NCBI GenBank assembly: GCA_964387325.1
Contig: CAYLYE010000002.1
Span: forward strand, 17,911-81,910
Direction: 5' to 3'
DNA: 64,000 nt
Origin: an uncultured Planctomycetaceae bacterium
GTDB lineage: Bacteria; Planctomycetota; Planctomycetia; Pirellulales; PNKZ01
The position numbers were made by a program, and so were the translations under genes. Numbering within the stretch: the first letter of the stretch is position 1; every line of letters starts with the position of its first letter. The notes under the pieces were generated by a model that was given only the letters and a program-made list of their open reading frames with translations, was not told the origin of the DNA and did no database searches. This document shows, piece after piece, positions 8,570-64,000 of this stretch.

Positions 8570-8571
8570 CG

Positions 8572-10072: not shown

Positions 10073-11587
10073 CTAGGCGCGATCCCAATAGCTATAGTTT
10101 GCCTTGAGCTGCGTCATCGTGAGTGTCACCAAGCCAGGTGCCGAGCCGTTGTTGATGCCCCAAGGGTTGAACAGCGTCACAGTTTGGGCATTGCTGTCGA
10201 CACTCGCGACAACGTACTGGTGATTGCCGACGACCGACTTCAAGCTGGGGGTCGAGGTCGAGGCGAAGCCGATCATTTTTCCGGCCGCGAAAGCGTTCGC
10301 CACCGAAGCAAAGGTGATCGAAGAAGTCGACGCGGTGACCGAGGTCACGTTGGCAATCTGCTTAACAGCCTGCGAGAAGTACCCTCCGGCGACCGCCTGG
10401 TATGAGTTCACGCCATTACCGGGCAGGCCTTGGCGGAGCCAGCCAGCCTCGTTGATCTGGCAGTAAGCTTTCTCAGCCATCGCGACCCAAAGCACGTTGC
10501 TTGAGCTGCTGGCCGTTTGTCCCATATTGGCAAAGACCAACCGACCGCTCGAGACGGGCAGCATCGAGTCGACCGTCACGTAGTCGGCCTTACCGTTATT
10601 ATAGAACCGCACGGTGTAGGTGCCGTCGCCATTGACGGTGAACATGCTTTTGACGGCGTTGGGATTTTTGAGGGCCGCTTCGGCCAGCGTGGCGACGAAG
10701 TAGCAATCTCCCACGGCGCCTTGTTTCACATCGGTGTACACCGGACCATTGCTGGCAAACAATTTGCCCGAGGCATTCGCGTAAGCGAAGGTCGTGGAGT
10801 TGTACTTGGCCAGCGGATGATCGGTTCCCAGGAACCACTTGCTGACCAGCTTGTCGAGTTGTGTTGTGGTCGAAGTGCTAGTCAAGTTGCCGAGCGCGGT
10901 CCCTTGATAGCTCTTATTCGCGGCGTTCCCTTGCACAACGTCCTTGGTCAACACTTTGACGCTGTCGTAAGATCCAAACAGACTGTCAGTCGCGGCGATT
11001 TTAGAGAGGTCGGAATATTCATTCGCTGACATTGTTTTATCAGCGCTCACTTGGCGGAATATGCCCATCATTTCATTGCGATTGATCGCGCTATCGGCAT
11101 TGGCAGCACGCGCGAGGCTACGAATGGCCGCGTCTTTGATGTTGCGATCGTACCAATCGAGTGCCGAACCACCAATGGACGTCACACCGGTTGCCGAGAC
11201 CGCCAGTGCACCGTTACCGCTGAGATACGTATAACTTCCATCGAGTAGCTTGACGTTGTCGAGCCCCGCGCCGGCGTTGAGCGTGATCGACTTGCCGAAT
11301 TTCTGCCCGCTTGTCACCAGCCCATTGAGGCTGACCGCATCGGTGCCCGTGCCGCTATTGATGACGACCGAATTGATGCGCGAGGTGAAGAAGCCGGAGT
11401 TGACGCCATCGATCGAGACCGTGCCGCCTGATTGGCGTAACACGATGCTGTCATCACCGCTGGTGCCGGTGATCGTCAACACTCCCGTACCGCTGAGACT
11501 GGCCACTAGCCCGGCGAGCATCGATCGATCTTCGAGCTTCTCAACGCGAAAACGGAGCCGATTGGCAGGAATCTCTTTGGTTCGCAT
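10073..11587 (-). CDS. secreted calpain-like cysteine protease (peptidase C2 core) with planctomycete 'LEDR' N-terminal motif
   Basis: 504 aa. N-terminus 'RLRFRVEKLEDRSMLAG'. GDD/Gly-rich repeats. C-terminal half carries calpain triad contexts: 'QGAVGDCYFVATLAEAAL' (Cys295), 'GNHQYVV' (His456), 'LFNPWG' (Asn474). Confidence 0.8.
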   Translation of the reverse strand: MRTKEIPANRLRFRVEKLEDRSMLAGLVASLSGTGVLTITGTSGDDSIVLRQSGGTVSIDGVNSGFFTSRINSVVINSGTGTDAVSLNGLVTSGQKFGKSITLNAGAGLDNVKLLDGSYTYLSGNGALAVSATGVTSIGGSALDWYDRNIKDAAIRSLARAANADSAINRNEMMGIFRQVSADKTMSANEYSDLSKIAATDSLFGSYDSVKVLTKDVVQGNAANKSYQGTALGNLTSTSTTTQLDKLVSKWFLGTDHPLAKYNSTTFAYANASGKLFASNGPVYTDVKQGAVGDCYFVATLAEAALKNPNAVKSMFTVNGDGTYTVRFYNNGKADYVTVDSMLPVSSGRLVFANMGQTASSSSNVLWVAMAEKAYCQINEAGWLRQGLPGNGVNSYQAVAGGYFSQAVKQIANVTSVTASTSSITFASVANAFAAGKMIGFASTSTPSLKSVVGNHQYVVASVDSNAQTVTLFNPWGINNGSAPGLVTLTMTQLKANYSYWDRA

Positions 11588-22390: not shown

Positions 22391-22403
22391 CTTCGTGTGA
22401 AAG

Positions 22404-23798
22404 ATGAACTGGACAACCTTCATGCCTCACCATCGATCGTTGCCTCGCAGCGACTCGCGTCGCCGCTTGCTACAGCAAACGGCCACCGGATTTGGTTGGT
22501 TGGCGCTGCAGGCGCTCGCCACCGAGTCGGCTCGCGCAGCCGAACCGCGCTACCGCTCGCCACTGGCTCCCAAGGAGCCCCACTATCAGCCCCGGGCCAA
22601 GCGCGTGATCTTCCTGTTCATGGCCGGAGGACCATCACACCTGGACACGTTTGATTGGAAGCCCGAACTGGCCCGCGTGGGGCGTGGAGGGGGCAAAAGT
22701 CAATTGCTCGCACCGGTCGTCGACTTCGCCCCGGCCGGCAAGAGCGGCATTCACATGGCCACGATCTTTCCACACTTGTCCCGGCATGCCGATGATCTAT
22801 GCTTGCTCAACGGCGTTACGACCGGCAACCCGGGCCATCAACAAGCGACCGTCGCACTCCACACCGGTAGCGAGAATTTTGTCCGCCCCTCGCTCGGTGC
22901 CTGGGTCACCTACGGCCTGGGGACCGAGGCCCAGGATCTGCCCGGCTTCGTTACGATCGATCCGATCAACGATCTCGGCGGGGCAATGAACTACGGCTCG
23001 GCGTTTTTGCCCGCCAGCTACCAAGGCACGCGGCTCGGAGCAGGGCAGGGGAGTGTCCCCAACATTGCCAACCGTCGCCTCGACAGCGCCGAGCAGCGCC
23101 GGCAACTCGACTTCGTGCAGCGCACCAATCGCCGACTGCTCGACCAGTTGCCCGACAACCCCGAGCTCGAAGGACTCATCGAGTCGTACGAGCTGGCCTT
23201 CAAGATGCAAACCTCGGTCCCTGACACGCTCAGTTTCGACAACGAGCCCGACTCGATTCGCGAACTCTACGGTCTCGACGACGGCGAAACTCGCAACTTC
23301 GCCTCACAATGCCTGATGGCGCGACGGTTAGCCGAGAAAGGGGTGCGATTCATTCAGCTCACCAGCCCCGGTTGGGACCACCATAACAACCTCCGCGAGC
23401 ACATCACGCGCGGCGCCACCTCGATCGACAAACCAATCGCCGGGCTGATTGCCGACCTCAAACAGCGTGACATGCTTAAAGACACGCTGATCGTCTGGGG
23501 AGGCGAGTTCGGCCGCACGGCGCGTGACGACAAAGGAGACGGCAACGGTCGCGGACATGCCAACAAGGGGTTCTCAATGTGGATGGCCGGCGGCGGTGTG
23601 AAAGGGGGCCTGCGCTACGGCAAGACCGACGAGCTGGGCGAGGTCGCCGTCGAGGGAACGATGGATACGCATGATGTCCACGCCACGATTTTATATCTGC
23701 TTGGCCTCGACCACGAAGGGCTCACCTATCGCTACGCCGGCCGCGACTTCCGGTTGACCGACACGAAAGGGAAAGTCCATCGCGGGATTTTGAGTTAA
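22404..23798 (+). CDS. DUF1501 protein, Tat signal
   Basis: 464 aa. 'SDSRRRLLQQTATGFGWLALQALA' (twin-arginine), 'KRVIFLFMAGGPSHLDTFDWKP', '[10 protein letters not shown]', 'GRGHA', 'MWMAGGGV'. It starts 13 nt after the upstream gene. Confidence 0.9.
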   Translation: MNWTTFMPHHRSLPRSDSRRRLLQQTATGFGWLALQALATESARAAEPRYRSPLAPKEPHYQPRAKRVIFLFMAGGPSHLDTFDWKPELARVGRGGGKSQLLAPVVDFAPAGKSGIHMATIFPHLSRHADDLCLLNGVTTGNPGHQQATVALHTGSENFVRPSLGAWVTYGLGTEAQDLPGFVTIDPINDLGGAMNYGSAFLPASYQGTRLGAGQGSVPNIANRRLDSAEQRRQLDFVQRTNRRLLDQLPDNPELEGLIESYELAFKMQTSVPDTLSFDNEPDSIRELYGLDDGETRNFASQCLMARRLAEKGVRFIQLTSPGWDHHNNLREHITRGATSIDKPIAGLIADLKQRDMLKDTLIVWGGEFGRTARDDKGDGNGRGHANKGFSMWMAGGGVKGGLRYGKTDELGEVAVEGTMDTHDVHATILYLLGLDHEGLTYRYAGRDFRLTDTKGKVHRGILS

Positions 23799-26096: not shown

Positions 26097-28526
26097 ATGC
26101 TCACCCCACGTTGCTTCGTTTTTACCGCGCTGCTGTTGCTCCTGATTGCTTCGGGCAGTCCGAGTTGGAGCGCCGAGGCGGCACCATCGTTTGCACAAGC
26201 CGGCAAGACGTTTCTGGTCAAGCACTGCGTGCGGTGTCATGGGGCGAACATGCCCAAGGCCGATCTGTCATTGCACTCGCTGACCGACGAGGCGGCGGTG
26301 CTCAAGTTTCGCAAACGCATGGAAGGGGTGCTCGACATGGTCGAGGCGGGCGAGATGCCCCCGGCCAAAGAGCCTCGCCCGTCGGCCGACGAGATCGCGG
26401 GCTTCCTCGCCTCGGTGCGCGGCATTTATGAAAAGGCTGACTCGAGCGGTGCGGTCGACCCGGGCCGGATCACGATGCGGCGACTCAATCGCGCCGAGTA
26501 CAACAACACGGTTCGCGATTTATTGCTGGTCGATTTTCAGCCGGCCGAGGATTTTCCGCCCGACGACGTGGGGCACGGCTTCGACAATATCGGCGACGTG
26601 CTCAGCGTCTCGCCGCTCTTGATGGAACGTTACCTGGCTGCGGCCGAGACTATCGCCAACCGGGTCATTCTGGCCGACATCCCCAAGCCGTCGAAGCGAT
26701 ATCTGTCGGGCCGATACTTGCAGCCGAACAATGCTCAGACCTCGCAAGGTCGTTTCCGGCAAATGGATGTGACGTCGAAGGAGCCCGTGCATGCGGGCCC
26801 TTTCACCGCGGCAGGAGATTACCTGAAGTTCACAGCCGATGCCGACCTCTTCTTTCGTGCCACGCTCTATGCCGAATCCAAGAGCAAAGCCCCCGTGAAG
26901 GTCGTGTTGTTCATCTCAGGCAAGGAACTGAGCGAGGTCTCCAGCGACGCCGAAATCGATCAACTGCTGGGCGCTGCCGTGCCGCAGATGAAGCCACTGA
27001 AGATCATGGGGACCTTCGAGATCACGGCCCGAGACGCGAAACAGCTGCAAACGATCGAAGTGCCGATCAATCACATGGGCAAGATCACGAAAGCGGGGAT
27101 CGCCTTGCTCAAAGGTCCCGAGGGGGACGAGCCCGCCAAGCTACACATCGAGAACCTTTGGAGCGAAGGGCCACTCGACACGCGTCCCGCCTCGCATCGG
27201 ATGATCTTGGCCAGCGATGAGAATGCATCTCCGCAGCAGCGAACGCGCGAGGTGCTCAATCGATTGCTCCCGCGAGCCTATCGGCGCCCTGTCACCAAGG
27301 ACGAAATCGAGTCGCTGGCGCGATTTGCCGATCAGGTCGTGGCCGACGGCCAGAAGTGGGAGCTGGGCATGCGACGGGTCGTGCAGGCGCTGCTCTGCTC
27401 GCCGAAGTATTTGTTCCGCGTCGAACTCGATGACCGGCCACAGACAAAGGAATCCCACGCAATTGACGAGTATCAACTCGCCTCGCGATTGAGTTATTTT
27501 CTTTGGAGCAGCATGCCCGACGACGAACTGTTCGGCTTGGCCGCAAAAAAACAGTTGACCGCACGGCTCGAAGAGCAAGTGCGTCGCATGCTGAAAGATC
27601 CCAAGTCAGCAGCGTTGATCGACAACTTCGCATTGCAATGGCTGCAGTTGGGCAAGTTGCAATCGCTCACCCCCGATGCGCAACTGTTTCCCTCGTTCAA
27701 CGAGAAACTGCGTCAGGCGATGATGGCTGAGACCAAGATGTTCATGCAGGAGATTGCCCGCGAAGATCGCAGCGTGCTCGACTTTATCCAGGCAGACTTC
27801 ACGTACATGAACGAGCCGCTCGCCAAACACTACGGCATGCTCGACAAGTTTCGCAAGAGTCTCAACGACGACGCCAAGTCGCGTGGCGTGCCGGTGAGAT
27901 ACGACAGTTACGCTCGCGTCCCCCTGACGGGTACCGATCGTGGCGGCTTGCTCACCCAGGCCAGCATTCTCACCGTGACCTCGAACCCGACGCGTACTTC
28001 GCCGGTCAAGCGGGGTCGTTGGATCCTCGAACAAATCCTCGGCACGCCCCCCCCTCCGCCGCCACCCAATGTGCCCGAGCTTGAGCAGCAGAAGGGACAG
28101 CTCACCGGATCACTGCGTCAGCGGATGGAACAGCACCGCAAGAACCCGGCCTGTGCCAGTTGTCATGCCCGTATGGACCCAATCGGCTTCGCGTTCGAGC
28201 ACTTCGACGCGGTCGGGGCGTACCGGCAGAAAGACGGCGAGTTTGAGATCGACGCTAGTGGGACTTTAACGGACGGGCGGAATATCCAGGGCCCGGCCGG
28301 TCTGCGCGAGGTATTATTAGAGAAGAAGGAACTGTTTACCCGATCATTAACGGAGCAGATGTTGACCTATGCCCTGGGACGGGGCCTCGAGTACTACGAC
28401 AAGCGTGCCGTCGACCGAATGGTTGCCGCGGCGGCCAAAGACGATTACAAATTCTCTCGGTTAGTCATTGAAATTGCACGGAGCGATCCGTTCCGTCTGC
28501 GTCGAGGAAAGGAAACAAACCCATGA
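26097..28526 (+). CDS. DUF1592/DUF1595/DUF1587/DUF1588/DUF1585-type (PSCyt3/PSD2-5) protein
   Basis: 809 aa. Signal peptide, then 'FLVKHCVRCHG' (CxxCH), 'RRLNRAEYNNTVRDLL', 'YQLASRLSYFLWSSMPDDEL', 'FALQWLQL', a poly-Pro 'GTPPPPPPPNVPE', and 'CASCHARMDPIGFAFEHFDAVGAYR'. Confidence 0.9.
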   Translation: MLTPRCFVFTALLLLLIASGSPSWSAEAAPSFAQAGKTFLVKHCVRCHGANMPKADLSLHSLTDEAAVLKFRKRMEGVLDMVEAGEMPPAKEPRPSADEIAGFLASVRGIYEKADSSGAVDPGRITMRRLNRAEYNNTVRDLLLVDFQPAEDFPPDDVGHGFDNIGDVLSVSPLLMERYLAAAETIANRVILADIPKPSKRYLSGRYLQPNNAQTSQGRFRQMDVTSKEPVHAGPFTAAGDYLKFTADADLFFRATLYAESKSKAPVKVVLFISGKELSEVSSDAEIDQLLGAAVPQMKPLKIMGTFEITARDAKQLQTIEVPINHMGKITKAGIALLKGPEGDEPAKLHIENLWSEGPLDTRPASHRMILASDENASPQQRTREVLNRLLPRAYRRPVTKDEIESLARFADQVVADGQKWELGMRRVVQALLCSPKYLFRVELDDRPQTKESHAIDEYQLASRLSYFLWSSMPDDELFGLAAKKQLTARLEEQVRRMLKDPKSAALIDNFALQWLQLGKLQSLTPDAQLFPSFNEKLRQAMMAETKMFMQEIAREDRSVLDFIQADFTYMNEPLAKHYGMLDKFRKSLNDDAKSRGVPVRYDSYARVPLTGTDRGGLLTQASILTVTSNPTRTSPVKRGRWILEQILGTPPPPPPPNVPELEQQKGQLTGSLRQRMEQHRKNPACASCHARMDPIGFAFEHFDAVGAYRQKDGEFEIDASGTLTDGRNIQGPAGLREVLLEKKELFTRSLTEQMLTYALGRGLEYYDKRAVDRMVAAAAKDDYKFSRLVIEIARSDPFRLRRGKETNP

Positions 28527-29869
28527 GCCATTATCAACACCTATCGCGTCGCCGTGTGCTACAAGGCTTGGGAGCAGCCGTGGCTTTGCCGTGGCTCGAA
28601 GCGATGGGCCCCGTCGCGGCTTGGGCTGCCACAGGCGAGCGCCGCGCGGCCGCAGCTCCGAACCGGATTGCCTTCCTGTATGTGCCCAACGGCATCAACA
28701 TGGAAGACTGGACCCCCGGCTACGAAGGGCCTCTTGGCGAGTTGACCTCGATTCTCAAGGAACTCGAGCCGCACAAGCAACACATCAACGTGCTCACCGG
28801 CCTGACGGCCGACAAGGCCCGCTCGCACGGCGATGGCGGCGGTGACCATGCCCGCGCCTTGTCAGCGTTCCTTACCGGAGCGCAACCGCGCAAAACCGAT
28901 GGCACCGACATCCGCGCGGGCGTGAGCGTCGACCAAGTTGCCGCGGCTCGTATCGGCGAAATGACGCGCCTCGCTTCGCTCGAAATCGGCTGCGATGCCA
29001 GCAACATGGCCGGCAATTGCGACTCGGGCTATAGCTGCGTGTACAACTCGACCATGTCATGGCGCTCGGCCACGCAACCGATTCCGAAAGAGTCGAACCC
29101 CAAGCTCGTGTTCGAGCGGCTCTTTGGTGGTGCTGGCGACAGCAACCGCGCCCAGCGAGACGCCCTGCGAAAAAGCATTTTGGACTTCGTGCGAGATGAC
29201 TCGGCCGCGCTCGCCAAACAGCTCGGCGCCAACGATCGCCGCAAGCTCGACGAATACTTCCACGCCATTCGCGATATCGAACAACGGATCGTCCGCGCGG
29301 CCAAGCTCCCCGAGATCAAGAAGCCCGACATGGCGGCTCCCGAGGGAATTCCCAAGGACTACGAAGAACACTGCCGGTTGCTTTGCGATCTGCTCGTGCT
29401 CGCGTTTCAGGCCGACGTGACCCGCGTGAGCACGTATGTGCTGGCCAACGAGGGGAGCAATCGCCCTTACTCGTTTATTGGCGTGAGCGAAGGGCACCAC
29501 GATCTCTCACATCACGGCAACGACAAGACCAAGAAACAAAAGATCGCCGAGATCAATCGTTTTCACGTGCGACAGTTGAACTACCTGCTCGGCAAGCTCA
29601 AGCAGGTGAAGGAAGGCCCCGGCACGCTGCTCGATCACTGCCTGATTGCCTACGGCAGCGGCAATAGCGACGGCAACGCACATAACCACGACAATCTGCC
29701 TGTGCTGCTCTGCGGTAACGGCGGCGGCACGGTGAAAACCGGACGACACATTCGCTACACGAACGAGACGCCGCTGAACAACCTCTGGCTCTCGATGCTC
29801 GAGCGAATCGACGTCCGCGTCCCGTTCCTGGGCGACAGCTCCGGAGCACTCGCCGGCCTGAACGGGTAA
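28523..29869 (+). CDS. DUF1552 (HxxSHH) protein, Tat signal
   Basis: 448 aa. 'LSRRRVLQGLGAAVALPWLEAM', 'RIAFLYVPNG', 'EGHHDLSHHG' (HxxSHH) and 'LIAYGSGNSDGNAHNHDNLP'. The ATG overlaps the upstream stop (ATGA). Confidence 0.9.
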   Translation: MSHYQHLSRRRVLQGLGAAVALPWLEAMGPVAAWAATGERRAAAAPNRIAFLYVPNGINMEDWTPGYEGPLGELTSILKELEPHKQHINVLTGLTADKARSHGDGGGDHARALSAFLTGAQPRKTDGTDIRAGVSVDQVAAARIGEMTRLASLEIGCDASNMAGNCDSGYSCVYNSTMSWRSATQPIPKESNPKLVFERLFGGAGDSNRAQRDALRKSILDFVRDDSAALAKQLGANDRRKLDEYFHAIRDIEQRIVRAAKLPEIKKPDMAAPEGIPKDYEEHCRLLCDLLVLAFQADVTRVSTYVLANEGSNRPYSFIGVSEGHHDLSHHGNDKTKKQKIAEINRFHVRQLNYLLGKLKQVKEGPGTLLDHCLIAYGSGNSDGNAHNHDNLPVLLCGNGGGTVKTGRHIRYTNETPLNNLWLSMLERIDVRVPFLGDSSGALAGLNG

Positions 29870-38836: not shown

Positions 38837-40918
38837 TTAGCGAGCCGCTCCTCGCCCCTCCGCGCAAACCCGCTCAAAATAGCTTTCATGCTCGCGAACC
38901 GTTCGTGGATCCAGGAACAGCGACTCGCCGGCCGTCTTGATTCGCTGCGCGAGGGCGCGTCGCGCTTCGCGATCGTGTGCCAACTGCCGGGCGATGCAAA
39001 CATAGTCAGCCGGTGAGCTGGCCAGGGTGTCTTGAATACCCAGCTCCCGATACACACCGAGCGTCCAACGTCCGCGCTGATAGGCACCCGGCAGCGAGAC
39101 GACGGGCGTGCCGACGGCGACGGTGTCGTAGACGGTATTCGCGCCGCCGCCATAGTGCAGCGTATCGAGGGCGACATCGGCGAGAGCCACGACGTTCAGA
39201 TACTCGGGGCGATCCATCCGCTCAAGCACCTGCACGCGCCGCTCGACCGCGGGGATCGACCCGCGCAGCCGCTCGATGAGTCGCGCGGTGATGCGTGGCT
39301 GGGCGTCGGCAATAATCAGCAGTCGGCCGAGCGGATCGCCGTTCATCAGCTCGCCGAGGATCGCGTCGAAGTCGGGATGGTACTTGCGCAGATTCTGTGT
39401 GCAAATGTAGAGATGCTCTTGCGCCGACCAACCATAATGGGCCCGGTCGCGGAGCCGATCAGGCAAGGCAGGGCGCTCGTAACAGGTGGGCAAAGCCTGC
39501 ATACGCACCAGCGACTCGCTGAACTGCGACGACGCCGACTCGGGCTCGATCAAGTCGCACGATACAAAGTCTTGGATGCGCGGATTGCCACTGGTGATTG
39601 GCCAGCCCCATGTGCTCGACTGTCGCGGCGCGGGCTGAAAGAACGGCAGGAAGTAGTTCGTCGAATCGGTTCCCACTTCCCAGTAGTGAAGCACGTCGAA
39701 TCGCGCGTCACGAATGGCCTGGGCGGCCTCGACTAGTTTTTCGCTCAGGACCAGATACTCGCCATCGGCAATGCGGATCATCTGCTTGAGGACGTTCGCT
39801 CCGCTGCGCGAGCAGATCACGCGCACATCGAATTTGGCGCGTGAGAGCCGCTCGGCGATACCTCCCCAGCAGCGTGCAAAGACCCCTTCATGCCCATGAG
39901 TGACGACAATCCCGACGCGCGGCTTGCCCGAATTGGGCAACAGCTCAAGAGGCTGGATCGCACTGGTGAACAGTGCTGCGTACCGCTGCATGAGTTCGCA
40001 CACCTCGTGCCCTTGATAGGCCAAGGCCATCGGGGGCTCGGCCCCGCTAGAGTGCAACGTCGCCAGATCGAGTTGCGGCGCGTCGTGTTGCAAACGCTCG
40101 ATGGTTTGCCGCAATTCGACTGGAAACCGCTCGACATACGCCCGGTGCGGAGGAATCACCTCGGCGAGCGCTGAGAGCCGCAGTTGTGCCGTCAGCGTGT
40201 CGAGTTTGTCCGTCAGGCCGCGACGGTAGCACTGCTCGGCCGTGGCTAGGTCTCCCTGCGCTTGCCAAGCCTGGGCAAGCGAGACGGCAATGTCGAGGTT
40301 CTCGGGTTTGAGTCGCTCGGCTTCGCTCAGGTGTTTGATTGCCTGGCCGAGTTCGCCCAACTCGCTGTAACTGCAACCGAGATTAAGGTGCGTGTCGGCC
40401 GAGTGGGGTTGCAATTCGAGTGCGTGGCGATAATGGTCCACCGCAGTCTTGATCCGCCCCTCCTCGCGGAGAAAGTTAGCCAAATTGAAGTGCGCGTGAG
40501 CATAGTTAGGCCGCAACTGCAGTGCGCGCCGCAACGCACCCTCGGTTTGCTCCCGGTCTCCGCGGGCTTTGAAGATCAGACTGAGGTTATAAACCGGTTC
40601 CGGAAATCGCGGCTGGAGGTGAATGGCGCGGCGGAAGCAAAGCTCGGCCTCGTCGAGTTTCCCTTGCTGACGCAATAACTCTCCTAGATTGTTGCAGATC
40701 ACGGCGTCGCGCGGTTGCAGTTCATGGGCGCGCCGCAACATAACCTCCGCCTCGGCGTGTCGTTCGGCGCGGCTGAGGATCATGCCGAGCATATGTCGTG
40801 CGTCGAAATGGTTCGGCTGTCGTTGGATCAATTCGCGACAGACACGTTCGGCGCCGACCCAATCACTGGCCTGAAAACAGCGGATCGCAGATTCAAAGGT
40901 GAGCTGAGTGGCAGTCAT
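38837..40918 (-). CDS. TPR-repeat protein with C-terminal GT41 (O-GlcNAc transferase / SPINDLY-like) domain
   Basis: 693 aa. About 7 TPR units (e.g. 'AHFNLANFLREEGRIKTAVDHYRHALELQP'). C-terminal 'PRVGIVVTHGHEG', 'YLPFFQPAPRQSSTWGWPITSG', 'DTLHYGGGANTVYDTVAVGTPVVSLPG' are typical of bacterial OGT/SPY homologs. Confidence 0.85.
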   Translation of the reverse strand: MTATQLTFESAIRCFQASDWVGAERVCRELIQRQPNHFDARHMLGMILSRAERHAEAEVMLRRAHELQPRDAVICNNLGELLRQQGKLDEAELCFRRAIHLQPRFPEPVYNLSLIFKARGDREQTEGALRRALQLRPNYAHAHFNLANFLREEGRIKTAVDHYRHALELQPHSADTHLNLGCSYSELGELGQAIKHLSEAERLKPENLDIAVSLAQAWQAQGDLATAEQCYRRGLTDKLDTLTAQLRLSALAEVIPPHRAYVERFPVELRQTIERLQHDAPQLDLATLHSSGAEPPMALAYQGHEVCELMQRYAALFTSAIQPLELLPNSGKPRVGIVVTHGHEGVFARCWGGIAERLSRAKFDVRVICSRSGANVLKQMIRIADGEYLVLSEKLVEAAQAIRDARFDVLHYWEVGTDSTNYFLPFFQPAPRQSSTWGWPITSGNPRIQDFVSCDLIEPESASSQFSESLVRMQALPTCYERPALPDRLRDRAHYGWSAQEHLYICTQNLRKYHPDFDAILGELMNGDPLGRLLIIADAQPRITARLIERLRGSIPAVERRVQVLERMDRPEYLNVVALADVALDTLHYGGGANTVYDTVAVGTPVVSLPGAYQRGRWTLGVYRELGIQDTLASSPADYVCIARQLAHDREARRALAQRIKTAGESLFLDPRTVREHESYFERVCAEGRGAAR

Positions 40919-40999
40919 CGAGATAGACAGACTCGGTACGGAAAAGAATATCGCAAAATTCTATCGTAATCACCAGGATCGGTTTTCGTCGCCGCTCAA

Positions 41000-42196
41000 C
41001 TACAGAAGTTGATCCAAAATCTGCCGCAACTCGTTGAGGTCGACCGTGAAATCGCGATCCTGATTGACGACCGGCCCGCTCAGGAGAGCATAGCGCTGGC
41101 GCAAAGCGCTCGCGAGGACCCAAAAGACATGGTTCATCGTGTCGCGCGGATGCAATTCGAGCAACGTCAACGTCTCCGGGCCGAATACAATGTTGGTCAG
41201 TCCTGAGCCGTGAGGACCGACCACGATCTGTGCCTCCGAGAGAAGCCGGACCTGATCGATGAACGGTATCGTGGCCAGTTGCACCGTTTCAAACCCGAGC
41301 GATTGCAGGCACGCGATCAGGGCGCTCTCATTGAGCACGCGGCGATTAGGAGCGTCGCCACGCGAAATATACAGACGACGATGAGGTACCGCGATAGGGA
41401 TACCGTAATACGAGTAAACTCGCTGGCGAATCCATTGCAGCTGGGCAGGCCAAAAGTCGCCGCTGGCCGGAAAGTACAACCGCTCAATCTGCCAGTGGGT
41501 TGCGTCGAACGGCAAGCGTTGCTCGTTGGGCAACCCCAGCGCCGCGAGCGACTCGTGTTGAAACGAGTTGAGTGTACGAGGAAGCAAGACCGGGACGTCG
41601 CGCAAGGCCACGTGCTGTTCGAGCCACCACAGCCGCGCAAGACTGTTGATCATCCAGTGATGGTAGTTGAACGCCCAGGGTTGTGCGAGCAGCAGCGCCG
41701 CCCCGGCCAGGGTGCGTGTCGGCGTGGGATCGCGCAGCACGACGCGCGGCGGTCGCTGTGCCAAGCCCGGCCCTCCGGCGAGGCACTGCAAGTAGGCGCC
41801 GTCGTTCAGATTTTCGAGCGACCAGTACGATTCGGAGAATACCTGCCGATCATGCGACACGACCACGAACTTCTCGCCAATGAGCCGCGCGTCGGCAAGG
41901 CAATCCAGTCGCAATTCCGACAGCGGAAACGCATGCTGGTCGCGCAACGGAGACTGCGGCATAAAAAAGAACCGCTCTCGATCGAGGTCGATCAACTCGG
42001 GGCGCGGGCAGTCGAGGTGCGGCGGCGACTCGGCACGCCAGTGTCGCGTGAGCCCGTTGGTGACCAGAAGGTCGTCGAGGCGATCGACCCGAGCGCTCGC
42101 TTGACGCAGCGCACTGATTCGCAATTCGAGCGGATTCGATGACGACATCGGACGATGGACGATCAAAGGGGAATACGACTCAGCGACACTTCTCAT
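41000..42196 (-). CDS. GT61-family glycosyltransferase (DUF563)
   Basis: 398 aa. 'FNYHHWMINSLARLWW', 'RLYISRGDAPNRRVLNE', 'QVRLLSEAQIVVGPHGSGLTNIVF' match the DUF563/GT61 signature. It lies 81 nt upstream of the GT41 gene on the same strand. Confidence 0.8.
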   Translation of the reverse strand: MRSVAESYSPLIVHRPMSSSNPLELRISALRQASARVDRLDDLLVTNGLTRHWRAESPPHLDCPRPELIDLDRERFFFMPQSPLRDQHAFPLSELRLDCLADARLIGEKFVVVSHDRQVFSESYWSLENLNDGAYLQCLAGGPGLAQRPPRVVLRDPTPTRTLAGAALLLAQPWAFNYHHWMINSLARLWWLEQHVALRDVPVLLPRTLNSFQHESLAALGLPNEQRLPFDATHWQIERLYFPASGDFWPAQLQWIRQRVYSYYGIPIAVPHRRLYISRGDAPNRRVLNESALIACLQSLGFETVQLATIPFIDQVRLLSEAQIVVGPHGSGLTNIVFGPETLTLLELHPRDTMNHVFWVLASALRQRYALLSGPVVNQDRDFTVDLNELRQILDQLL

Positions 42197-56915: not shown

Positions 56916-57716
56916 GTGAGCGATCTACCGATGTTCTCCCGTTGTCGAATCGTTGATCTCAGCGTACCGCTGGCCCATGAGTCCCCGAGTGAGCCGATGC
57001 CGGCGTCGATCCGGTACATCGATCATGCCGGCGAAGGCTTGCAGCAAATGAAGCTATTCTTCGGCGTCGAGGAAAAAGATTTGGTCTACTCACAAGGGCA
57101 GGGGTGGGCCATCGAGGAGATTCAGGCCATCACCCACACCGGCACCCATGTCGACGCCCCGTATCACTACGCGGCAACGAGCGCAGGGCGACCCGCTCGA
57201 CGCATTGACGAAGTGCCACTCGAATGGTGCTTTGCTCCCGGCGTGGTGCTCGATGTGCGCCACATTGCGGCCGGCGAATTCATCACGATCGACGACCTGC
57301 GCGCGGCGCTCGACCGTAGCGAGCACGTGCTTCAGCCGCTCGATATCGTGCTGCTGCAGACCGGGTCCGACGCGAGGCTCGACACCGCCGAGTATTTTGC
57401 CCAACCAGGCCTGGGTCGCGAGGGGACGCTGTGGTTGGTCGAACAAGGCGTGCGGGTCATTGGCATCGATGCCTACACGCTCGACCGACCGTTTGCGAAC
57501 ATGGTCGCCGACTTCCGTCGCACCGGGGATGGCCGTTACATCTGGCCAGCCCACTTCGCCGGCATCGAACGGGAGTATTGCCAGATCGAAAAGCTTGCGA
57601 ACCTCGACAAGTTGCCGCGCAGCGGCTTTCAGGTCTCATGTTTGCCTGTGAAGATCGAGAAGGCGAGCGCGGCTTGGTGTCGGGCCGTGGCGCTCGTGCC
57701 AGCCGACGACCCTTAA
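56916..57716 (+). CDS. cyclase-family protein (kynurenine formamidase-like)
   Basis: 266 aa, GTG start (alternative ATG 56931). 'ITHTGTHVDAPYHY' metal-binding motif, 'VIGIDAYTLD' and 'HFAGIEREYCQIEKLANLD'. Confidence 0.85.
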   Translation: MSDLPMFSRCRIVDLSVPLAHESPSEPMPASIRYIDHAGEGLQQMKLFFGVEEKDLVYSQGQGWAIEEIQAITHTGTHVDAPYHYAATSAGRPARRIDEVPLEWCFAPGVVLDVRHIAAGEFITIDDLRAALDRSEHVLQPLDIVLLQTGSDARLDTAEYFAQPGLGREGTLWLVEQGVRVIGIDAYTLDRPFANMVADFRRTGDGRYIWPAHFAGIEREYCQIEKLANLDKLPRSGFQVSCLPVKIEKASAAWCRAVALVPADDP

Positions 57717-58609
57717 ATACCCGGAGCGCGGTCCGGATAAATGACCAACTCGACGCGGTTGTTCCGCTGCTTGCCGGCCGGCGTACCGTTCGAGACCACC
57801 GGATGATTCGTGCCATGCCCGACTACGAACAAATGATGCGGCGGAATGCGTCCGCGCGTCTGTAATTGATCGTACACCGCCATAGCCCGGCCGATCGAGA
57901 GATGCTGATTGCTCGACCAGTGTCCCGGTGGCACCGGGTCGCTGTCGGTATGTCCTTCGACGCCGATCATTTGCGTGGGGTAGCTGCGCATGACCTCGGC
58001 CGCGACAGCGTCGATCGTGGCGATCGCTTGCGGCGAGAGCCGTGCCGTGCCGGGGTCAAACAGTCGCGAACCGGGCAACTCGATCCGCAGCACATCTCCG
58101 TCGACGCGCGTCTCGACCCCAGGAATATTGATTTTCGAGAGATTCGTTTGCAGGCTGTTGTTGGCCGTGATCGATGCACCGGCGCGTCGGTTGAGCGAGG
58201 CCGTCAGCGCCTCGGCGCGACGTGTGGTGTCTTGGGTCTCGGCTCGCATTTGAGCTGCCGACTGCGTGGCAACGCGCAATTGCTCGCGCATCGCCCCCAC
58301 CTGATCTTGCAGCACGCGAGTTTCTTGCCGCGACTGGGCCAGCATCCGTTCGAGTTCTTGATTATCGGTGTCCAACGATGACGCCCGAGTCTGCAACTCC
58401 TGGCTGCGTTGGTAGAGCCCCGCGACGGGGTTGGCCGGAGGAGCACCTGGCATCGCGCCAGCTTGAGCCACGGCCGGCGGCTGTTGATAGCCGCTCATCC
58501 GTTGCTGCCACGAGGTCAACAAGCCGGGCTGACCATTTTGCGCAGCGCAGCCCACGAGCGACGCCGCGAGCAGCAGCCAGAGCCAGCGTATTGAGCCGGT
58601 CCACGGCAT
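57713..58609 (-). CDS. OmpA/MotB-domain lipoprotein with coiled-coil region
   Basis: 298 aa. Lipobox 'LLLAASLVGC'. Gln-rich coiled coil. C-terminal 'GHTDSDPV', 'SNQHLSIGRAMAVYDQL' and 'NNRVELVIY' (OmpA_C-like). Confidence 0.85.
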   Translation of the reverse strand: MPWTGSIRWLWLLLAASLVGCAAQNGQPGLLTSWQQRMSGYQQPPAVAQAGAMPGAPPANPVAGLYQRSQELQTRASSLDTDNQELERMLAQSRQETRVLQDQVGAMREQLRVATQSAAQMRAETQDTTRRAEALTASLNRRAGASITANNSLQTNLSKINIPGVETRVDGDVLRIELPGSRLFDPGTARLSPQAIATIDAVAAEVMRSYPTQMIGVEGHTDSDPVPPGHWSSNQHLSIGRAMAVYDQLQTRGRIPPHHLFVVGHGTNHPVVSNGTPAGKQRNNRVELVIYPDRAPGI

Positions 58610-58801
58610 GGACCCACGCTCCCAAAGGGCCGAGAAAAATGAATCGCAATCGCCACCTTTCGAGGTGGGGCCGGGATGGTAGCAATCGGCTCACATTGCA
58701 GCAAGGGCAGTTGAACTCGCGGCCCCCCTTTTGAACGCCGCACTCCTATTTGTGCTATCATCACTGGCAGCGGTAACGTCGTTCATATCTCTAATCGTTG
58801 C

Positions 58802-59986
58802 ATGTCCATTTCATCTCGCATGGCTCGCTTTCGTCGAGTGCCGCTGGCGTGGCTCAATCTGACGCATCAACCTCGTCAGCTCGCGGCCGCAGCCGGCGGT
58901 GTGGGTTTCGCGGTGCTGCTCATGTTCATGCAACTCGGGTTTCGTGGCGCGCTTATCGAAGCCACGCTGCAATTGCCCCGACTGCTCAATGCCGATTTGG
59001 TGATGAGCAGCCCGGCCAAGAACACCCTCTCAAACAAGGAAACCTTCTCGCGCCGCCGATTGATTGCCGCCCGCGATTGCCCGGGGGTCGCCGCGACATG
59101 GCCGTTTTACATGCTGATGCTGCGCGGCGAGTGGCGCAATCCGCAAACACACGAACTGCATCCGATCACCGTCTATGCGTTCGATCCACATGATCCGGTG
59201 CTCAAGATTCCCGAACTGCCGACATTGACTGAGACGCTGCTGCTCCCTGGCCGGATTCTCTTCGACCGCAAAGCCAAGCCCGAGTTTGGCAACCCGCGCC
59301 CCGGAACCGTCAGCCAACTCTCGGGCGAGCGTGTCGAGGTCGTCGGCAACTTTGACCTGGGAGCCGACTTTGTCAGCGACGGCAATATCCTGATGAGCGA
59401 CCAGAGCTATCGCGATATTTTTTTCCCTCCCGCCGCGCGTGCCACGGCGCTCGCGGGGGTCGACCTCGGGCTCATCAAGCTCGTAAGCGGCGCTGACCCC
59501 GGCGAGGTTCGTGACCGCTTGCGGCGCACGCTCGGCAATGACATTCAGATCCTCACCCGCAACGAATTCATCGCGCAGGAACAGGCCTTCTGGCAAACCG
59601 CGACTCCCGTCGGCTATATCTTCGGTTTTGGCACCGTGCTAGGATTCGTCGTGGGAGTGCTCATCTGTTATCAAGTCTTGTACTCCGACATTGCCAATCA
59701 TTTGAGCGAGTACGCCACGCTTAAAGCGCTGGGGTATCCGGCCGGGTTTTTTATGCGGATCGTGTTCGAGCAATCGTTGTGGCTCGCGGTGATCGGGTTT
59801 ATCCCCGGCACGCTCGCCGCCTTGGGATTGTACGGAACTCTGGCAATGCTCACGCACTTGCCGTTGCAAATGACCCTGGAGCGCAGCCTGTTTGTGCTGA
59901 CGCTGACCCTGGCCATGTGTGTCGTCTCGGGCGCGCTCTCCATTCGCCGTCTACTTCAGGCCGACCCGGCGGAGCTGTTCCGATGA
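58802..59986 (+). CDS. devC: DevC-type ABC exporter permease (FtsX/MacB-like)
   Basis: 394 aa. 'RRVPLAWLNLTHQPRQLAAAAGGVGFAVLLMFMQLGF' is the DevC N-terminal signature. A periplasmic MacB-like core and C-terminal FtsX helices follow ('YATLKALGY'). Confidence 0.85.
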   Translation: MSISSRMARFRRVPLAWLNLTHQPRQLAAAAGGVGFAVLLMFMQLGFRGALIEATLQLPRLLNADLVMSSPAKNTLSNKETFSRRRLIAARDCPGVAATWPFYMLMLRGEWRNPQTHELHPITVYAFDPHDPVLKIPELPTLTETLLLPGRILFDRKAKPEFGNPRPGTVSQLSGERVEVVGNFDLGADFVSDGNILMSDQSYRDIFFPPAARATALAGVDLGLIKLVSGADPGEVRDRLRRTLGNDIQILTRNEFIAQEQAFWQTATPVGYIFGFGTVLGFVVGVLICYQVLYSDIANHLSEYATLKALGYPAGFFMRIVFEQSLWLAVIGFIPGTLAALGLYGTLAMLTHLPLQMTLERSLFVLTLTLAMCVVSGALSIRRLLQADPAELFR

Positions 59987-61146
59987 ACCAGGACACACCC
60001 AGCCAAATGCTCCGCGCCAGCTCGCGGCTCGCCACCCGCGAGCTGCCTCGCGGCGCCGACGCGCTCAGTGTGCAGATCCAAGGTCTGCAACACTGGTATG
60101 GCAAAGGAGAACTCCGCAAACAGGCGCTGTTCGACAATCACTTGGAGCTGTCGCGCGGCGAGATCGTCATTATGACGGGCCCCTCGGGCTCGGGCAAAAC
60201 AACCTTGCTCACGCTCATCGGCGCACTCCGCGGCGTACAACAAGGACGATTGTCCGTGCTGGGGCGAGAGCTGTCGCAACTCAGCCCCAGGGAGCTTGTC
60301 GGGGTGCGACGTGATATCGGGTTTATCTTCCAAGCCCACAATCTGTTCGCCTCGCTGACGGCGCTGCAAAATGTCCGCATGGCGCTGGAGCTGCACGACG
60401 TTGCCCCGCAGCGCCGCGATGAACAGGCCGCCGAAATGCTCCGAGCCCTGGGACTTGAACAGCGATTGCATTACAAGCCGCAGTCACTCAGCGGCGGACA
60501 ACGACAGCGCGTCGCGATCGCTCGCGCCCTGGTTAACAAGCCGCAGATCGTCCTGGCCGACGAACCCACCGCGGCACTCGACAAGCAATCGGGCCGCGAC
60601 GTGGTCGAACTGCTCAAGACAATTGCCCGCATACAACGAGCCACGATCTTGATCGTGACGCACGACAATCGCATTCTCGACGTGGCCGACCGCATCGTGA
60701 ATATGGTCGACGGCCGCATTATTTCTGACGTTGTTGTGAGCTCTGCGGCTGTCGTATGCGACTTTCTCAGGCAATGTCGACTGTTTAAGAATCTCACGCC
60801 AGCGACGTTGAGCAGCGTGGCCGACAGTGTCGAGATCGAATCAGTCGACGCGGGGCAAGAGGTGGTCCGGCAAGGGGAGTCAGGCGATAAATTCTATATT
60901 ATCCGCCAAGGCCGCGCCGAAGTGCTGGTCCGCGACGACACGGGGCCCCGGCGCGTGGCAACGCTCGTCGAACGTGACTTCTTCGGCGAGGCGGCTTTGC
61001 TCACCGGTGAACCACGCAACGCCACGGTGCGGGCACTCGACAACCTCGATCTCTATGTGCTGGGCAAAGTTGAATTCCAACGCGCCATCGATAGCTGTGC
61101 GTCTTTTCACGACGAACTTCGACACGCGGTCTTTGAACGACAATAA
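59983..61146 (+). CDS. devA: DevA-type ABC ATPase fused to a C-terminal cyclic-nucleotide-binding (CAP_ED) domain
   Basis: The ORF track starts at 59779. ATG 59983 overlaps the devC stop (ATGA). 'LRKQALFDNHLELSRGEIVIMTGPSGSGKTTLLTLIGALR', 'LSGGQRQRVAIARAL' and 'LADEPTAALD' are DevA-like. The C-terminal ~125 aa, 'LFKNL....VRQGESGDKFYIIRQGRAEVL....FFGEAALLTGEPRNATVRA', form a cNMP-binding domain. Confidence 0.85.
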   Translation: MNQDTPSQMLRASSRLATRELPRGADALSVQIQGLQHWYGKGELRKQALFDNHLELSRGEIVIMTGPSGSGKTTLLTLIGALRGVQQGRLSVLGRELSQLSPRELVGVRRDIGFIFQAHNLFASLTALQNVRMALELHDVAPQRRDEQAAEMLRALGLEQRLHYKPQSLSGGQRQRVAIARALVNKPQIVLADEPTAALDKQSGRDVVELLKTIARIQRATILIVTHDNRILDVADRIVNMVDGRIISDVVVSSAAVVCDFLRQCRLFKNLTPATLSSVADSVEIESVDAGQEVVRQGESGDKFYIIRQGRAEVLVRDDTGPRRVATLVERDFFGEAALLTGEPRNATVRALDNLDLYVLGKVEFQRAIDSCASFHDELRHAVFERQ

Positions 61147-61161
61147 AGGAAACCGGGCCGT

Positions 61162-63444
61162 ATGTCGCTCGAACAGACCTGGAAAGAGGCCATGGCCTGC
61201 TGCCAAGCTCAGCGTTGGCACGAAGCCCGCCCTTTGCTCGAACAGCTCGCCGCCGCGGCGCCACAACACCCCGACGTGGCCCACGCGCTCGGAATGGTCC
61301 ATTATCACATCGGAGACAAGCCGCAGGCGGTCGTTCATTGGCAACGTTGTGTGCAACTCAATCCGCGCGATGGCCAAGCGCAGTCGAATCTCGGCCGCGC
61401 GCTCGCCGAGCTTGGCCGATCTACCGAGGCGCTGCCCCATTTGGATCAAGCCGTGCTCATGGCCACGAACGATCCGTTGCCGTGGCTCAACCGAGCGTTC
61501 GTGCGTTGGCAGTTGCAGCAATTCGACTTGGCACAAGACGATCTTGTGGCCGCATTGCGACGCGATCCGCGCTCGGTCGTCATTCGTCAGCACTGGGCTG
61601 AGTTGATCCCGCAACTGTTGTCGACGCGTATCGAGGCCGTTTCGCTCGCCGCCTTGCGCTCGTGGAGTGAATTGGCTGCGGATGACCCGCTCGCGCATTT
61701 TTATTTCGCCGCACTCACTCATCATCGCGGCGACACGAGCGCCGCGATCCCCAGCTACGATCGTGCCTTAAAACTGAATCCGCAACTGATCGAAGCCTGG
61801 AACAATCTGGCCGCGATCCACATGCAACGCTGCGAATACGAGTCCGCCGAGCGATGCCTGCGACAAGCACTGGAGCAGCGCGGCGATTTCGCCGATGCGC
61901 TGCTCAACCTGGGGACGCTCAAGTTTCGCACGCGACAATTCGACGATGCGCAACGCTACGCTGAACAGACCCTGTCACTGCGTGCCAACGATTCGACGGC
62001 CATGATGCTGCTTGGCGAGATTGCCCTGGAACGGCTCGACTACGAAGCGGCTCAAACGTGGTTCGATCGCACAATGGCTCAGCATCCTCGTGAGTCCGCC
62101 GCGTATAACAAACAGGCCGTGGTGGCGATGGCCATTGGCGATTTGGACGCGGCCGTGCGATGGCTCGACACGGCCTGTCAGCTTGACCCCCGCTCGCCGG
62201 TCTTTGGCAGTAATCGTTTATACCTCGAACATTATCGCGACGGGGCAAACCTCGAACGGCTCGCAGTCATACACGCCCAATGGGACGCCCAATACGCGAA
62301 AAATTGCCGCAAGGTCACCCTGCCTCGTCTTGCTCCGCTCGACGCCGAGCGCACACTCCGCATTGGCTTTGTATCGGCCGACCTTGGACATCATCCGATC
62401 GGTTATTTGCTCGCACCGTTCTTCGCCGCCATCGATCGTCGCGCCTGCAAACTCTTTTGCTACTCGAATCGGGCCTTCAACGACGATGTCGAACAGAAGC
62501 TGCGCGCACATTGCGACGGCTGGCTCAACATTCAAGGCCTCGGCGACGATCAAGTCGCCCAAGCGATTGTCGACGACCGCATCGACGTGCTCATCGATCT
62601 ATCGGGACACACGGCCCGGCATCGGTTGCTGGTCTTCGCTCGACAGCCTGCTCCGCTACAGGCTTCGTGGATGGGTTACGTGGGCCCGACCGGCCTATCG
62701 ACGATCACGCACTTCATTGTCGACGATTCGCTGGTAAGTCAGGAGCTGGTCGCGCGCTACACGCAGACACCGATTCGGCTGCCGATCGTGTCGTGCTGCT
62801 ACCAGATGCCCGATGCCGCGCCGAGTATCCAACCGCTCCCAGCGCTGAAGAACGGCTACGTGACGTTTGGCAGCTTTAACAATCCTCGCAAAATCACCCC
62901 CACGGTGATTGCTGCCTGGTCGCGCGTGTTGCAAGGGGTACCCGACGCGCGATTGGTCATGAAGTTTCGTGCCCTCGATAACCCGTTGGGGATACGCCGC
63001 TATCAGGAGATGTTTACCCAGCACGGAGTCGACCTGAACCGGATTACCTTCGAGGGACACGCGCCGTTCGCAGACATGCTCACCCGCTATCAGGCTATCG
63101 ACTTGGCTCTGGACTCGTTTCCCTACACCGGGGGCACCACGAGCATCCTGGCACTGTGGATGGGAGTGCCGATCGTCACCCTGCGCGGCGAGACCGTCGC
63201 CGGTCGCCAAACCTGGGCCGTGCTACGCTCCATCAACGAAACGGACACCGTGACGGACTCGGTCGACGAGTACGTGCAGCGCGCCATCGCGCTGGCCAAC
63301 AATCTGCCGCAACTCAGCGCCATGCGGGGTCGATTGCGCGAGCGACTCGCCCAATCGCCACTCAATCAAAGCGCGACACTCGCCCGTGCCTGGGTCGAGG
63401 CCGTTCGTGGCGCGTGGCGCACGTTCGTTTTGACCGGACAGTAA
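61162..63444 (+). CDS. TPR-repeat protein with C-terminal GT41 (OGT/SPINDLY-like) domain, second copy
   Basis: 760 aa. TPR units (e.g. 'AWNNLAAIHMQRCEYESAERCLRQALEQ'). Then 'LRIGFVSADLGHHPIGYLL', 'DVLIDLSGHTA', 'VTFGSFNNPRKIT' and 'LDSFPYTGGTTSILALWMGVPIVTL'. It starts 15 nt after devA. Confidence 0.85.
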   Translation: MSLEQTWKEAMACCQAQRWHEARPLLEQLAAAAPQHPDVAHALGMVHYHIGDKPQAVVHWQRCVQLNPRDGQAQSNLGRALAELGRSTEALPHLDQAVLMATNDPLPWLNRAFVRWQLQQFDLAQDDLVAALRRDPRSVVIRQHWAELIPQLLSTRIEAVSLAALRSWSELAADDPLAHFYFAALTHHRGDTSAAIPSYDRALKLNPQLIEAWNNLAAIHMQRCEYESAERCLRQALEQRGDFADALLNLGTLKFRTRQFDDAQRYAEQTLSLRANDSTAMMLLGEIALERLDYEAAQTWFDRTMAQHPRESAAYNKQAVVAMAIGDLDAAVRWLDTACQLDPRSPVFGSNRLYLEHYRDGANLERLAVIHAQWDAQYAKNCRKVTLPRLAPLDAERTLRIGFVSADLGHHPIGYLLAPFFAAIDRRACKLFCYSNRAFNDDVEQKLRAHCDGWLNIQGLGDDQVAQAIVDDRIDVLIDLSGHTARHRLLVFARQPAPLQASWMGYVGPTGLSTITHFIVDDSLVSQELVARYTQTPIRLPIVSCCYQMPDAAPSIQPLPALKNGYVTFGSFNNPRKITPTVIAAWSRVLQGVPDARLVMKFRALDNPLGIRRYQEMFTQHGVDLNRITFEGHAPFADMLTRYQAIDLALDSFPYTGGTTSILALWMGVPIVTLRGETVAGRQTWAVLRSINETDTVTDSVDEYVQRAIALANNLPQLSAMRGRLRERLAQSPLNQSATLARAWVEAVRGAWRTFVLTGQ

Positions 63445-63478: not shown

Positions 63479-64000
63479 CTACTTGGCCAATTTCAGCTTG
63501 GCGTCGCCGGGCTCGAACGTTTGCGGCTCGGGAGTGTCGACCGTAAGCCGCTGCCAACTCGCGCCGCTCTCGCGAAACGCCCGCCAATCGCGGACCTGAT
63601 AGGCGATGTTCAGTTCCGGCGTCTCAATGGGCTTCTGATGAAAATGCGAGTGGACTGCGGCGCTCGTCATGCCCGTAGTGAGCAGCGTCCGCTCGGCCGG
63701 GTAAGGCTCTTGTCGATGAATGAACAAATGTTGAATAGCATGCGACAAGGCCTTGAACAGGCAGCGATTCCCCCAGGGACCATTGAAGTGCGCGAAGGCA
63801 TGTGGCTTGGCCTCGCCTTTAAGTCGACAGGCAAAATTCCAACGGCTCGACGAACTGCCCGCGATCAGAGCCGTCGCCTTCAAGCCATCGCGATACTCGA
63901 TCAGAATCGCTTCATGAATTTGCGTCGGGTCGTCAGGACGGGCGTCGGCGCTCTGCGGCGGCAAACTGGCTCGCGGGCGCTGCTGGCGTTTGGCCTGCAT
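63479..64000 (-). CDS. hypothetical protein, C-terminal ~173 aa; probably continues beyond the right window edge
   Basis: The reading frame is open to the last base of the window. The ATG at 64000-63998 may be coincidental, since the N-terminal residues look like mid-protein sequence. No motif recognised. Confidence 0.45.
   Translation of the reverse strand: MQAKRQQRPRASLPPQSADARPDDPTQIHEAILIEYRDGLKATALIAGSSSSRWNFACRLKGEAKPHAFAHFNGPWGNRCLFKALSHAIQHLFIHRQEPYPAERTLLTTGMTSAAVHSHFHQKPIETPELNIAYQVRDWRAFRESGASWQRLTVDTPEPQTFEPGDAKLKLAK

Follow-up and report, generated by a model that had tools for sequence, protein, structure and literature searches.

A stretch of 64,000 nucleotides from an uncultured Planctomycetaceae bacterium (contig CAYLYE010000002.1, positions 17,911 to 81,910; hereafter the window) carries near its end a devC gene for a permease, a devA gene for an ATP-binding cassette (ABC) ATPase and a gene for a glycosyltransferase of family GT41. 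The DevA protein ends in a cyclic-nucleotide-binding (CNB) domain, and comparison of sequences identifies this DevA::CNB fusion as the norm in a very large, putative efflux-pump family of planctomycetes and verrucomicrobia (PVC bacteria). The locus itself is probably a rearranged devC2-devA::CNB fragment of a widespread PVC efflux module, in which a membrane-fusion protein (MFP, DevB-like), two DevC paralogs (DevC1 and DevC2, or C1 and C2) and DevA::CNB are found, often together with a convergent TolC-like outer-membrane factor (OMF), the remaining partners being encoded elsewhere. An earlier annotation made from the sequence alone (the original prediction) had regarded the fusion, the lack of devB and the glycosyltransferase neighbour as peculiarities of a coherent glycoconjugate export module. 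The fusion architecture, the intact phosphate-binding cassette and the absence of devB from the window were borne out by our analysis; the rarity of the fusion, the existence of a system that does without devB and the GT41 module were not. The transporter genes and the domains of DevA are arranged as follows.

58802-59986, + strand: devC, 394 aa, MacB/FtsX-type permease of the DevC family, C2 paralog type
59983-59986, + strand: ATGA in which the devC stop and the devA start overlap, read directly from the sequence and pointing to translational coupling
59983-61146, + strand: devA, 387 aa, ABC ATPase with a C-terminal CNB domain
60070-60732, + strand: devA nucleotide-binding domain (NBD) of the MacB/LolD class, residues ~30-250 (TIGR02982, PDB matches, AlphaFold2 model)
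60778-61146, + strand: devA CNB/CAP_ED domain, residues ~266-387 (PF00027, PDB matches, AlphaFold2 model)
60982-61029, + strand: phosphate-binding cassette FGEAALLTGEPRNATV, residues 334-349 (conservation in 84 family members)

Both products score above the cutoffs of their NCBIfam models, in agreement with the family assignment made originally: DevC reaches 332.1 bits with TIGR01185, the DevC equivalog (cutoff 290.35), over 380 of 380 profile positions, and DevA 339.8 bits with TIGR02982, the DevA family (cutoff 295.8). DevC is an intact MacB-type permease, with a Pfam FtsX match at residues 278-388 and, according to a hydropathy scan, four transmembrane (TM) segments (TM1 at 27-52, TM2-4 at 270-381) and an extracytoplasmic loop of ~215 aa between TM1 and TM2 (residues 53-269); its assignment to the C2 type rests on a score of 509 bits with the C2 hidden Markov model (HMM) against 424 bits with the C1 HMM. 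DevA is an intact ATPase of the MacB/LolD class. Besides its Pfam ABC_tran match (residues 52-197, E 4e-33), it has the Walker A motif GPSGSGKT from residue 66, LSGGQ at 169, the Walker B motif with the catalytic Glu, LADEP, at 191 and the H-loop VTHD at 225, and these catalytic motifs are invariant across 56 homologues. The best PDB sequence matches of the NBD are MacB (5lil, E 1e-49) and LolD, and in an AlphaFold2 model of DevA built on 56 homologues (mean pLDDT 87.7) the NBD superposes on those of MacB, LolD, YbbA and FtsE at 1.3-2.4 Å (about 2.1-2.2 Å for MacB).

The combination of ABC_tran and cNMP_binding proposed for 59983-61146 was recovered by Pfam, with PF00027 matching residues 286-371 (E 2e-20, 72.9 bits, cutoff 27.5). 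Searched alone, the C-terminal 134 aa found the CNB domains of PKG and PKA as best PDB matches (E 2e-38 to 1e-29), and the AlphaFold2 model places after the NBD a helix (residues 252-263), a beta-barrel that includes the cassette helix, and helices at the C-terminus, the CNB part having a pLDDT of about 90, so that both the PDB matches and the model speak for a beta-barrel CNB (CAP_ED) fold. Among the 50 best PDB matches of the DevA model, none was annotated as such a combination of NBD and CNB domain. The cassette aligns residue for residue with those of PKG/PKA domains (FGEAALLTGEPRNATV versus FGERALLYDEPRSATI; in PKG, FGE(R/A)ALL..PR(S/T)A(T/S)). G335, E336 and L339 are present in 84 of 84 family members, and F334, R345, A347 and a T or S at position 348 in 83 of 84 each; judged from the alignment, the residues for the known roles of the cassette are thus all there, with G-E for the ribose 2'-OH and R for the phosphate, followed by A-[TS]. 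Asn346, next to the cassette Arg, occurs in 74 of the 84 members and is specific to the family, whose cassette reads P-R-N-A-[TS]; at this position the residue is Ala in PKA and Thr or Ser in PKG. This Asn lies beside the phosphate-binding Arg and may bear on the selectivity for cAMP, cGMP or another ligand. A PKA/PKG-like CNB domain thus directly follows the NBD, its ligand-contact residues are essentially fixed across the family, and binding of a cyclic nucleotide is predicted. Since the cassette is intact and under selection, it is reasonable to infer that a cyclic nucleotide regulates the DevA ATPase.

Far from being peculiar to this locus, as had been thought, the fusion is the standard form of its family. 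In a search of a collection of 5.8 billion proteins, PF00027 was present in all of the best 120 listed DevA matches, out of at least 8000 that were scored, at 59-70% identity. A collection with one genome per species yielded at least 600 matched stretches, of which at least 567 encode a relative; the best 80 of these at least 567 belong mostly to Pirellulales and other Planctomycetota, and include as well Opitutaceae, Chthoniobacterales and other Verrucomicrobiota. Relatives in this species-representative collection are at most 67% identical among the matches listed. No description of a CNB-fused pump family of PVC bacteria was found in the literature searched, and a search for DevA or MacB proteins with a CNB domain in these bacteria returned as relevant only papers on Mycobacterium tuberculosis and on HetC.

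For 82 independent loci of such relatives, the neighbour genes were classified with HMMs built for them, and all counts below come from this classification; with tblastn alone, the MFPs of L029, L031 and L039 had gone unseen, and all three were recovered by the family HMM. The arrangements, in which A* stands for DevA::CNB, were as follows.

40 of 82 loci: MFP-DevC1-DevC2-DevA::CNB, collinear
13 of 82 loci: C2-C1-MFP, divergent from A*
21 of 82 loci: MFP divergent from A*, permease genes elsewhere
1 of 82 loci: MFP-A*
7 of 82 loci: other arrangements, several of them cut by a contig end

An MFP gene therefore adjoins DevA::CNB in 75 of the 82 relatives, and the lack of devB is a property of the window, which holds a split-off devC2-devA pair, and not of the system to which the pair belongs. 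Both permease paralogs lie side by side in 54 of 82, which suggests a LolC/LolE-like heterodimer within a tripartite MacB-type pump, and a TolC-like gene stands beside at least 23 of 82, either convergent just after A* or next to C2; Pfam OEP (PF02321) matches 9 of 12 aligned members of these TolC-like proteins. Full modules can be seen, for example, at L001:6211-12372 and L083:6270-10972 (loci being numbered L001-L083). From the architecture of the 82 relatives, the ancestral unit is therefore recognizable as a five-part tripartite pump of the MacB/DevBCA type, with two paralogous permeases in a LolC/LolE-like layout. Its components are often dispersed, as in the 21 loci at which the C genes lie away from the MFP gene and A*, and at L041, where C2-A* stands by itself. 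At L008, A* is alone, with no DevC or MFP gene within 10 kb; ~7 kb upstream of devA::CNB in this locus (856-3351 and 10001-11125), a separate open reading frame (ORF) has matches to the ATPase profile as well as to the DevC profile, and this fused, MacB-like NBD-permease ORF is preceded by an MFP-like ORF.

The closest relatives of both DevC and DevA are those of L082 and L083, two loci with the full MFP-C1-C2-A* operon, in which the 4-nt overlap of C2 and A is also called. The split in the window is therefore to be read, on sequence grounds, as a lineage-specific rearrangement that separated C2-A* from MFP-C1 and the OMF, that is, as a derived state. Four samples yielded contigs of a sister species (L084 and L086-L088; about 85% nucleotide identity to the window), and these have the order OmpA (- strand), devC-devA::CNB-GT41, a 452-aa gene (-) and two DUF1501 genes (-). 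Against the sister species, dN/dS is 0.10 for devC, 0.055 for devA and 0.11 for the GT41 gene, at dS of 0.57-0.81, and these low values indicate that all three genes are functional. Moreover, the window DevC has diverged as much as its DevA predicts (mean residual -0.003, rank 26 of 62), so that dN/dS and residual together fit an unchanged functional context, with no sign of changed constraint on DevC after the split.

The partners themselves were sought in several ways, all of which agree with the original statement that no HlyD/devB gene is present in the window. A tblastn search of the window with the MFP of one relative gave no match, an HMM of 64 relatives' MFPs run against all 598 window ORFs found none (best E 0.1), and neither HlyD nor OEP was revealed when Pfam was run on another 30 ORFs (200 aa or longer) and on three more genes upstream of devC. 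The family HMMs (598 ORFs) detected neither another DevC nor another ABC ATPase in the window, a jackhmmer profile of the relatives' OMF had no match in the window or the sister loci at E <= 1, and no MFP gene lies within 10 kb downstream in the sister loci. Three neighbours were considered as substitutes and rejected. The product of the OmpA-family lipoprotein gene (57713-58609), considered as a stand-in for the adaptor, shows no more than an OmpA domain and a coiled coil (MFP HMM E 0.22); the convergent 452-aa gene after the GT41 gene, as a TolC-like partner, has no OMF profile match and no Pfam match; and the 'cyclase' gene at 56916-57716, as a source of cyclic nucleotide, belongs to the 'putative cyclase' family PF04199, which is not known as a nucleotide cyclase family.

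Most likely, then, as judged from these comparisons, the window pair represents the permease and the cyclic-nucleotide-regulated ATPase of a pump of the MacB/DevBCA type, with the genes for its partners lying elsewhere. In such a pump, two DevA::CNB subunits would power a permease dimer, formed either by C2 with a C1 encoded elsewhere or by C2 alone, and the complex would run the mechanotransmission cycle of MacB and expel a substrate from the periplasm or the outer leaflet. Binding of cAMP or cGMP to the C-terminal domains would alter the readiness of the two NBDs to close, by analogy with MetN and MalK. The MFP, C1 and the outer-membrane partner would most likely be supplied from elsewhere in the genome, and the gene for the GT41 protein, which has tetratricopeptide repeats (TPR), may have been brought downstream by the same rearrangement, being probably co-transcribed and yet not part of the pump.

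Several known systems resemble this one in part. The NCBIfam models passed by DevC and DevA are built on the DevBCA family, and Anabaena DevBCA-HgdD is likewise a MacB-type ABC exporter, the relatives of the window pair also coming with an MFP and a TolC-like partner. In Anabaena, however, there is a single DevC, DevA measures about 220 aa and lacks a CNB domain, and the operon begins with devB (PMC8277102), whereas the window DevA carries the CNB domain, its relatives have two DevC paralogs, and the window locus lacks devB and OMF genes. The host of the window is a planctomycete, and of the window genes that were scanned, none was recognized as a gene for heterocyst glycolipids. MacAB-TolC of E. 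coli and A. actinomycetemcomitans shares the FtsX topology (four TM segments and a large loop in the periplasm) and the tripartite composition with MFP and OMF seen in the relatives, and MacB provides the best match of the NBD to a solved structure; unlike DevC and DevA, MacB fuses the NBD and the transmembrane domain (TMD) in one chain, acts as a homodimer and has no CNB domain. LolCDE has a separate NBD (LolD, among the top structural matches of the window NBD) and two paralogous FtsX-type permeases, LolC and LolE, as do C1/C2 and A, but it works without MFP, OMF or regulatory domain, and the window has one permease gene.

A pair made of an FtsX-type permease and an NBD with a CNB domain is already listed for M. 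tuberculosis, as Rv2563/Rv2564. This pair and Rv0072/Rv0073 have been described as MacB-like (type VII) permeases with an NBD that bears an extra regulatory domain (PMC7761784), and Rv2564 is listed with PF00027 (PMC4886424). The two-gene layout is that of the window, a likeness drawn from the descriptions in the literature; these pairs differ in their actinobacterial host and in having no MFP or OMF context. HetC of Nostoc is an ABC exporter of the PCAT type whose PF00027 domain is required for function and bound ppGpp, not cAMP, in vitro (PMC10986499). In HetC the domain is N-terminal and the exporter belongs to a different ABC class (C39 peptidase, fused TMD-NBD), whereas the window CNB domain is much closer to those of PKA/PKG and has a canonical cassette; by analogy, the ppGpp binding of HetC nevertheless calls for caution on the identity of the ligand in DevA. 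In MetN, MalK, CysA and PotA, a ligand-sensing domain directly follows the NBD, which provides a precedent for the control of NBD closure. Foldseek aligned the whole DevA model with MetN, CysA and PotA chains over about 370-390 columns, and by these alignments the CNB domains of DevA would occupy the place of the regulatory domains of MetN, MalK and CysA. The regulatory domain of the four ATPases has, however, a different fold (root-mean-square deviation 12-14 Å over the full length), and their systems are importers, none of which is known to sense a cyclic nucleotide.

The window locus, best classed as a rearranged form of a system type already known, matters little by itself. The feature worth following is that of the family, namely a putative cyclic-nucleotide-sensing MacB-type tripartite pump with two permeases, found in the genomes of many planctomycetes and verrucomicrobia. 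Direct gating of the ATPase by cAMP or cGMP, if it occurs, would be a widespread case in which a second messenger controls an ABC exporter at the level of the protein, and would offer a handle on cyclic-nucleotide signalling in the PVC superphylum and on the M. tuberculosis pairs Rv2563/64 and Rv0072/73.

The third gene, correctly described before as a TPR and GT41 gene that follows devA on the same strand, occupies with its spacer the following positions.

61147-61161, + strand: devA-GT41 spacer AGGAAACCGGGCCGT, 15 nt from the devA stop to the GT41 start
61162-63444, + strand: TPR and GT41 (OGT/SPINDLY-like) glycosyltransferase gene, 760 aa

In the protein, PF13844 (GT41) matches in two stretches with E 1e-43, best at residues 563-737, and TPR families match across the N-terminal region, with the best stretches between residues 17 and 346. 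Outside the sister species, GT41 homologues are at most 38% identical among the matches listed, and those listed with an organism name are mostly proteobacterial 'SPINDLY-family' proteins. A second TPR and GT41-like gene lies in the window at 38837-40918 (- strand; PF13844 E 1e-10), directly downstream of a GT61 glycosyltransferase gene (41000-42196, -), with which it may form a protein-glycosylation pair (38837-42196). The devCA neighbourhood is therefore not the only place in this genome with a gene of the GT41 type.

Several points weigh against the view of the pair as a split-off part of a five-component pump. No MFP, C1 or OMF gene is present in the 58.8 kb upstream (window) or in the 10 kb downstream (sister loci), and these genes would have to lie elsewhere in the genome. 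The literature searched gave no ligand-binding or transport data on any family member, and the spacing of 14-15 nt between devA and the GT41 gene, kept over a dS of about 0.6-0.7, would be compatible with a genuine operon. The missing partner genes also favour a different explanation, possible but in our judgement rather unlikely, according to which MFP, C1 and OMF have been lost and a DevC2 homodimer with two DevA::CNB subunits works as a stand-alone, cyclic-nucleotide-regulated extractor or flippase-like machine. Members of the MacB family that act without an MFP (LolCDE, FtsEX, HrtBA), as well as the two-gene M. tuberculosis pairs with their CNB-bearing NBD, would be precedents for it, and the strong purifying selection on both genes implies that the pair is functional as it stands. 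In L041, the sole other lineage of this kind, C2-A* is preceded by 1.9 kb in which neither C1 nor MFP is present; this lineage retains, however, a TolC-like gene right after A*, so that it is not a case free of both MFP and OMF. Loss of partners might have accelerated DevC2 relative to DevA, which is not what its rate indicates, dispersed components are common in the PVC DevA::CNB family, and the pairing of C1 with C2 in most relatives suggests an obligate heterodimer. It could also be the case that devC2 and devA::CNB are non-functional leftovers, decaying after the operon was split and its other genes had gone from the locus, but both ORFs have their full length, every motif is intact, and their dN/dS values at such dS effectively refute this idea, to which we assign a negligible probability.

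The proposal put forward originally, that devC, devA::CNB and the GT41 gene form a dedicated module in which the glycosyltransferase makes a glycoconjugate and a cyclic-nucleotide-gated DevCA exports it, appears improbable. The genes do share a strand, the GT41 start is preceded by AGGAA, the 15-nt spacer leaves no room for a terminator, which makes co-transcription with devA likely as far as the sequence can tell, and the arrangement is kept in the sister contigs, with a spacer of 14 nt, and the GT41 gene under purifying selection. However, the sister species is syntenic over the whole ~20-kb neighbourhood, the genes upstream of devC included, and the kept adjacency therefore carries no specific signal. 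Near devA::CNB, a GT41 gene was found in none of the 82 independent relatives, being seen only in the syntenic sister species, and the closest full-length outside homologue that was looked up (P0127, 36% identity) lies beside a DUF4915 gene with no ABC genes nearby. Enzymes of the GT41 family, such as OGT and HMW1C/NGT, glycosylate proteins in the cytoplasm and are not known to synthesize glycolipids, and a hydropathy scan found no hydrophobic or TM segment in the protein encoded here. MacB-type pumps, in contrast, take their substrates from the periplasmic side (PMC5985334). Anabaena DevBCA paralogs handle glycolipids, drugs and other cargo (PMC8277102); membership of the DevA family therefore does not predict a glycolipid, and the substrate of this pump need not be one. 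The export module thus finds no comparative support, and the TPR-GT41 gene is probably a co-oriented neighbour that is not functionally tied to devCA. A bolder version, that the five-part pump has been rewired to an MFP-less three-gene operon in which a cAMP/cGMP-gated DevC2 homodimer acts with the co-transcribed TPR-GT41 protein, for instance in the extraction or presentation of a glycosylated envelope protein or peptide, seems to us a similarly long shot; if true, it would be a second-messenger-gated glycoconjugate export module without a described counterpart.

Upstream of devC, the following region presumably holds its promoter.

58610-58801, no strand: divergent intergenic region of 192 bp between the OmpA-family lipoprotein gene (-) and devC (+)

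A consensus promoter scan of this region gave no match, and promoter and terminator scans were both at chance level. In the sister-species locus L086, the first ~90 nt of the region and the motif TTTGTGCTATCATC are conserved. A perfect palindrome with arms CCACCT and AGGTGG around TTCG (CCACCTTTCGAGGTGG), which may be an operator or an RNA hairpin, lies at 58653-58668 and is also kept in the sister species. In the OmpA-family protein encoded by the divergent gene at 57713-58609 (-), the N-terminus resembles a lipobox (LLAASLVGC) and the middle region is long and coiled-coil-like. At the other side of the locus, the last window ORF (63479-64000, -) is cut by the window end; its full-length counterpart in the sister species (L086:13477-14835) is the 452-aa gene without a Pfam match, with 97% identity over the shared part. 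Elsewhere in the window, typical planctomycete gene pairs, PSCyt/PSD with DUF1501 twice and PSD/PSCyt3 with DUF1552 (HXXSHH) once, are found at 5450-10032, 20366-23798 and 26097-29869; they have no relation to devCA and confirm the phylum of the host.

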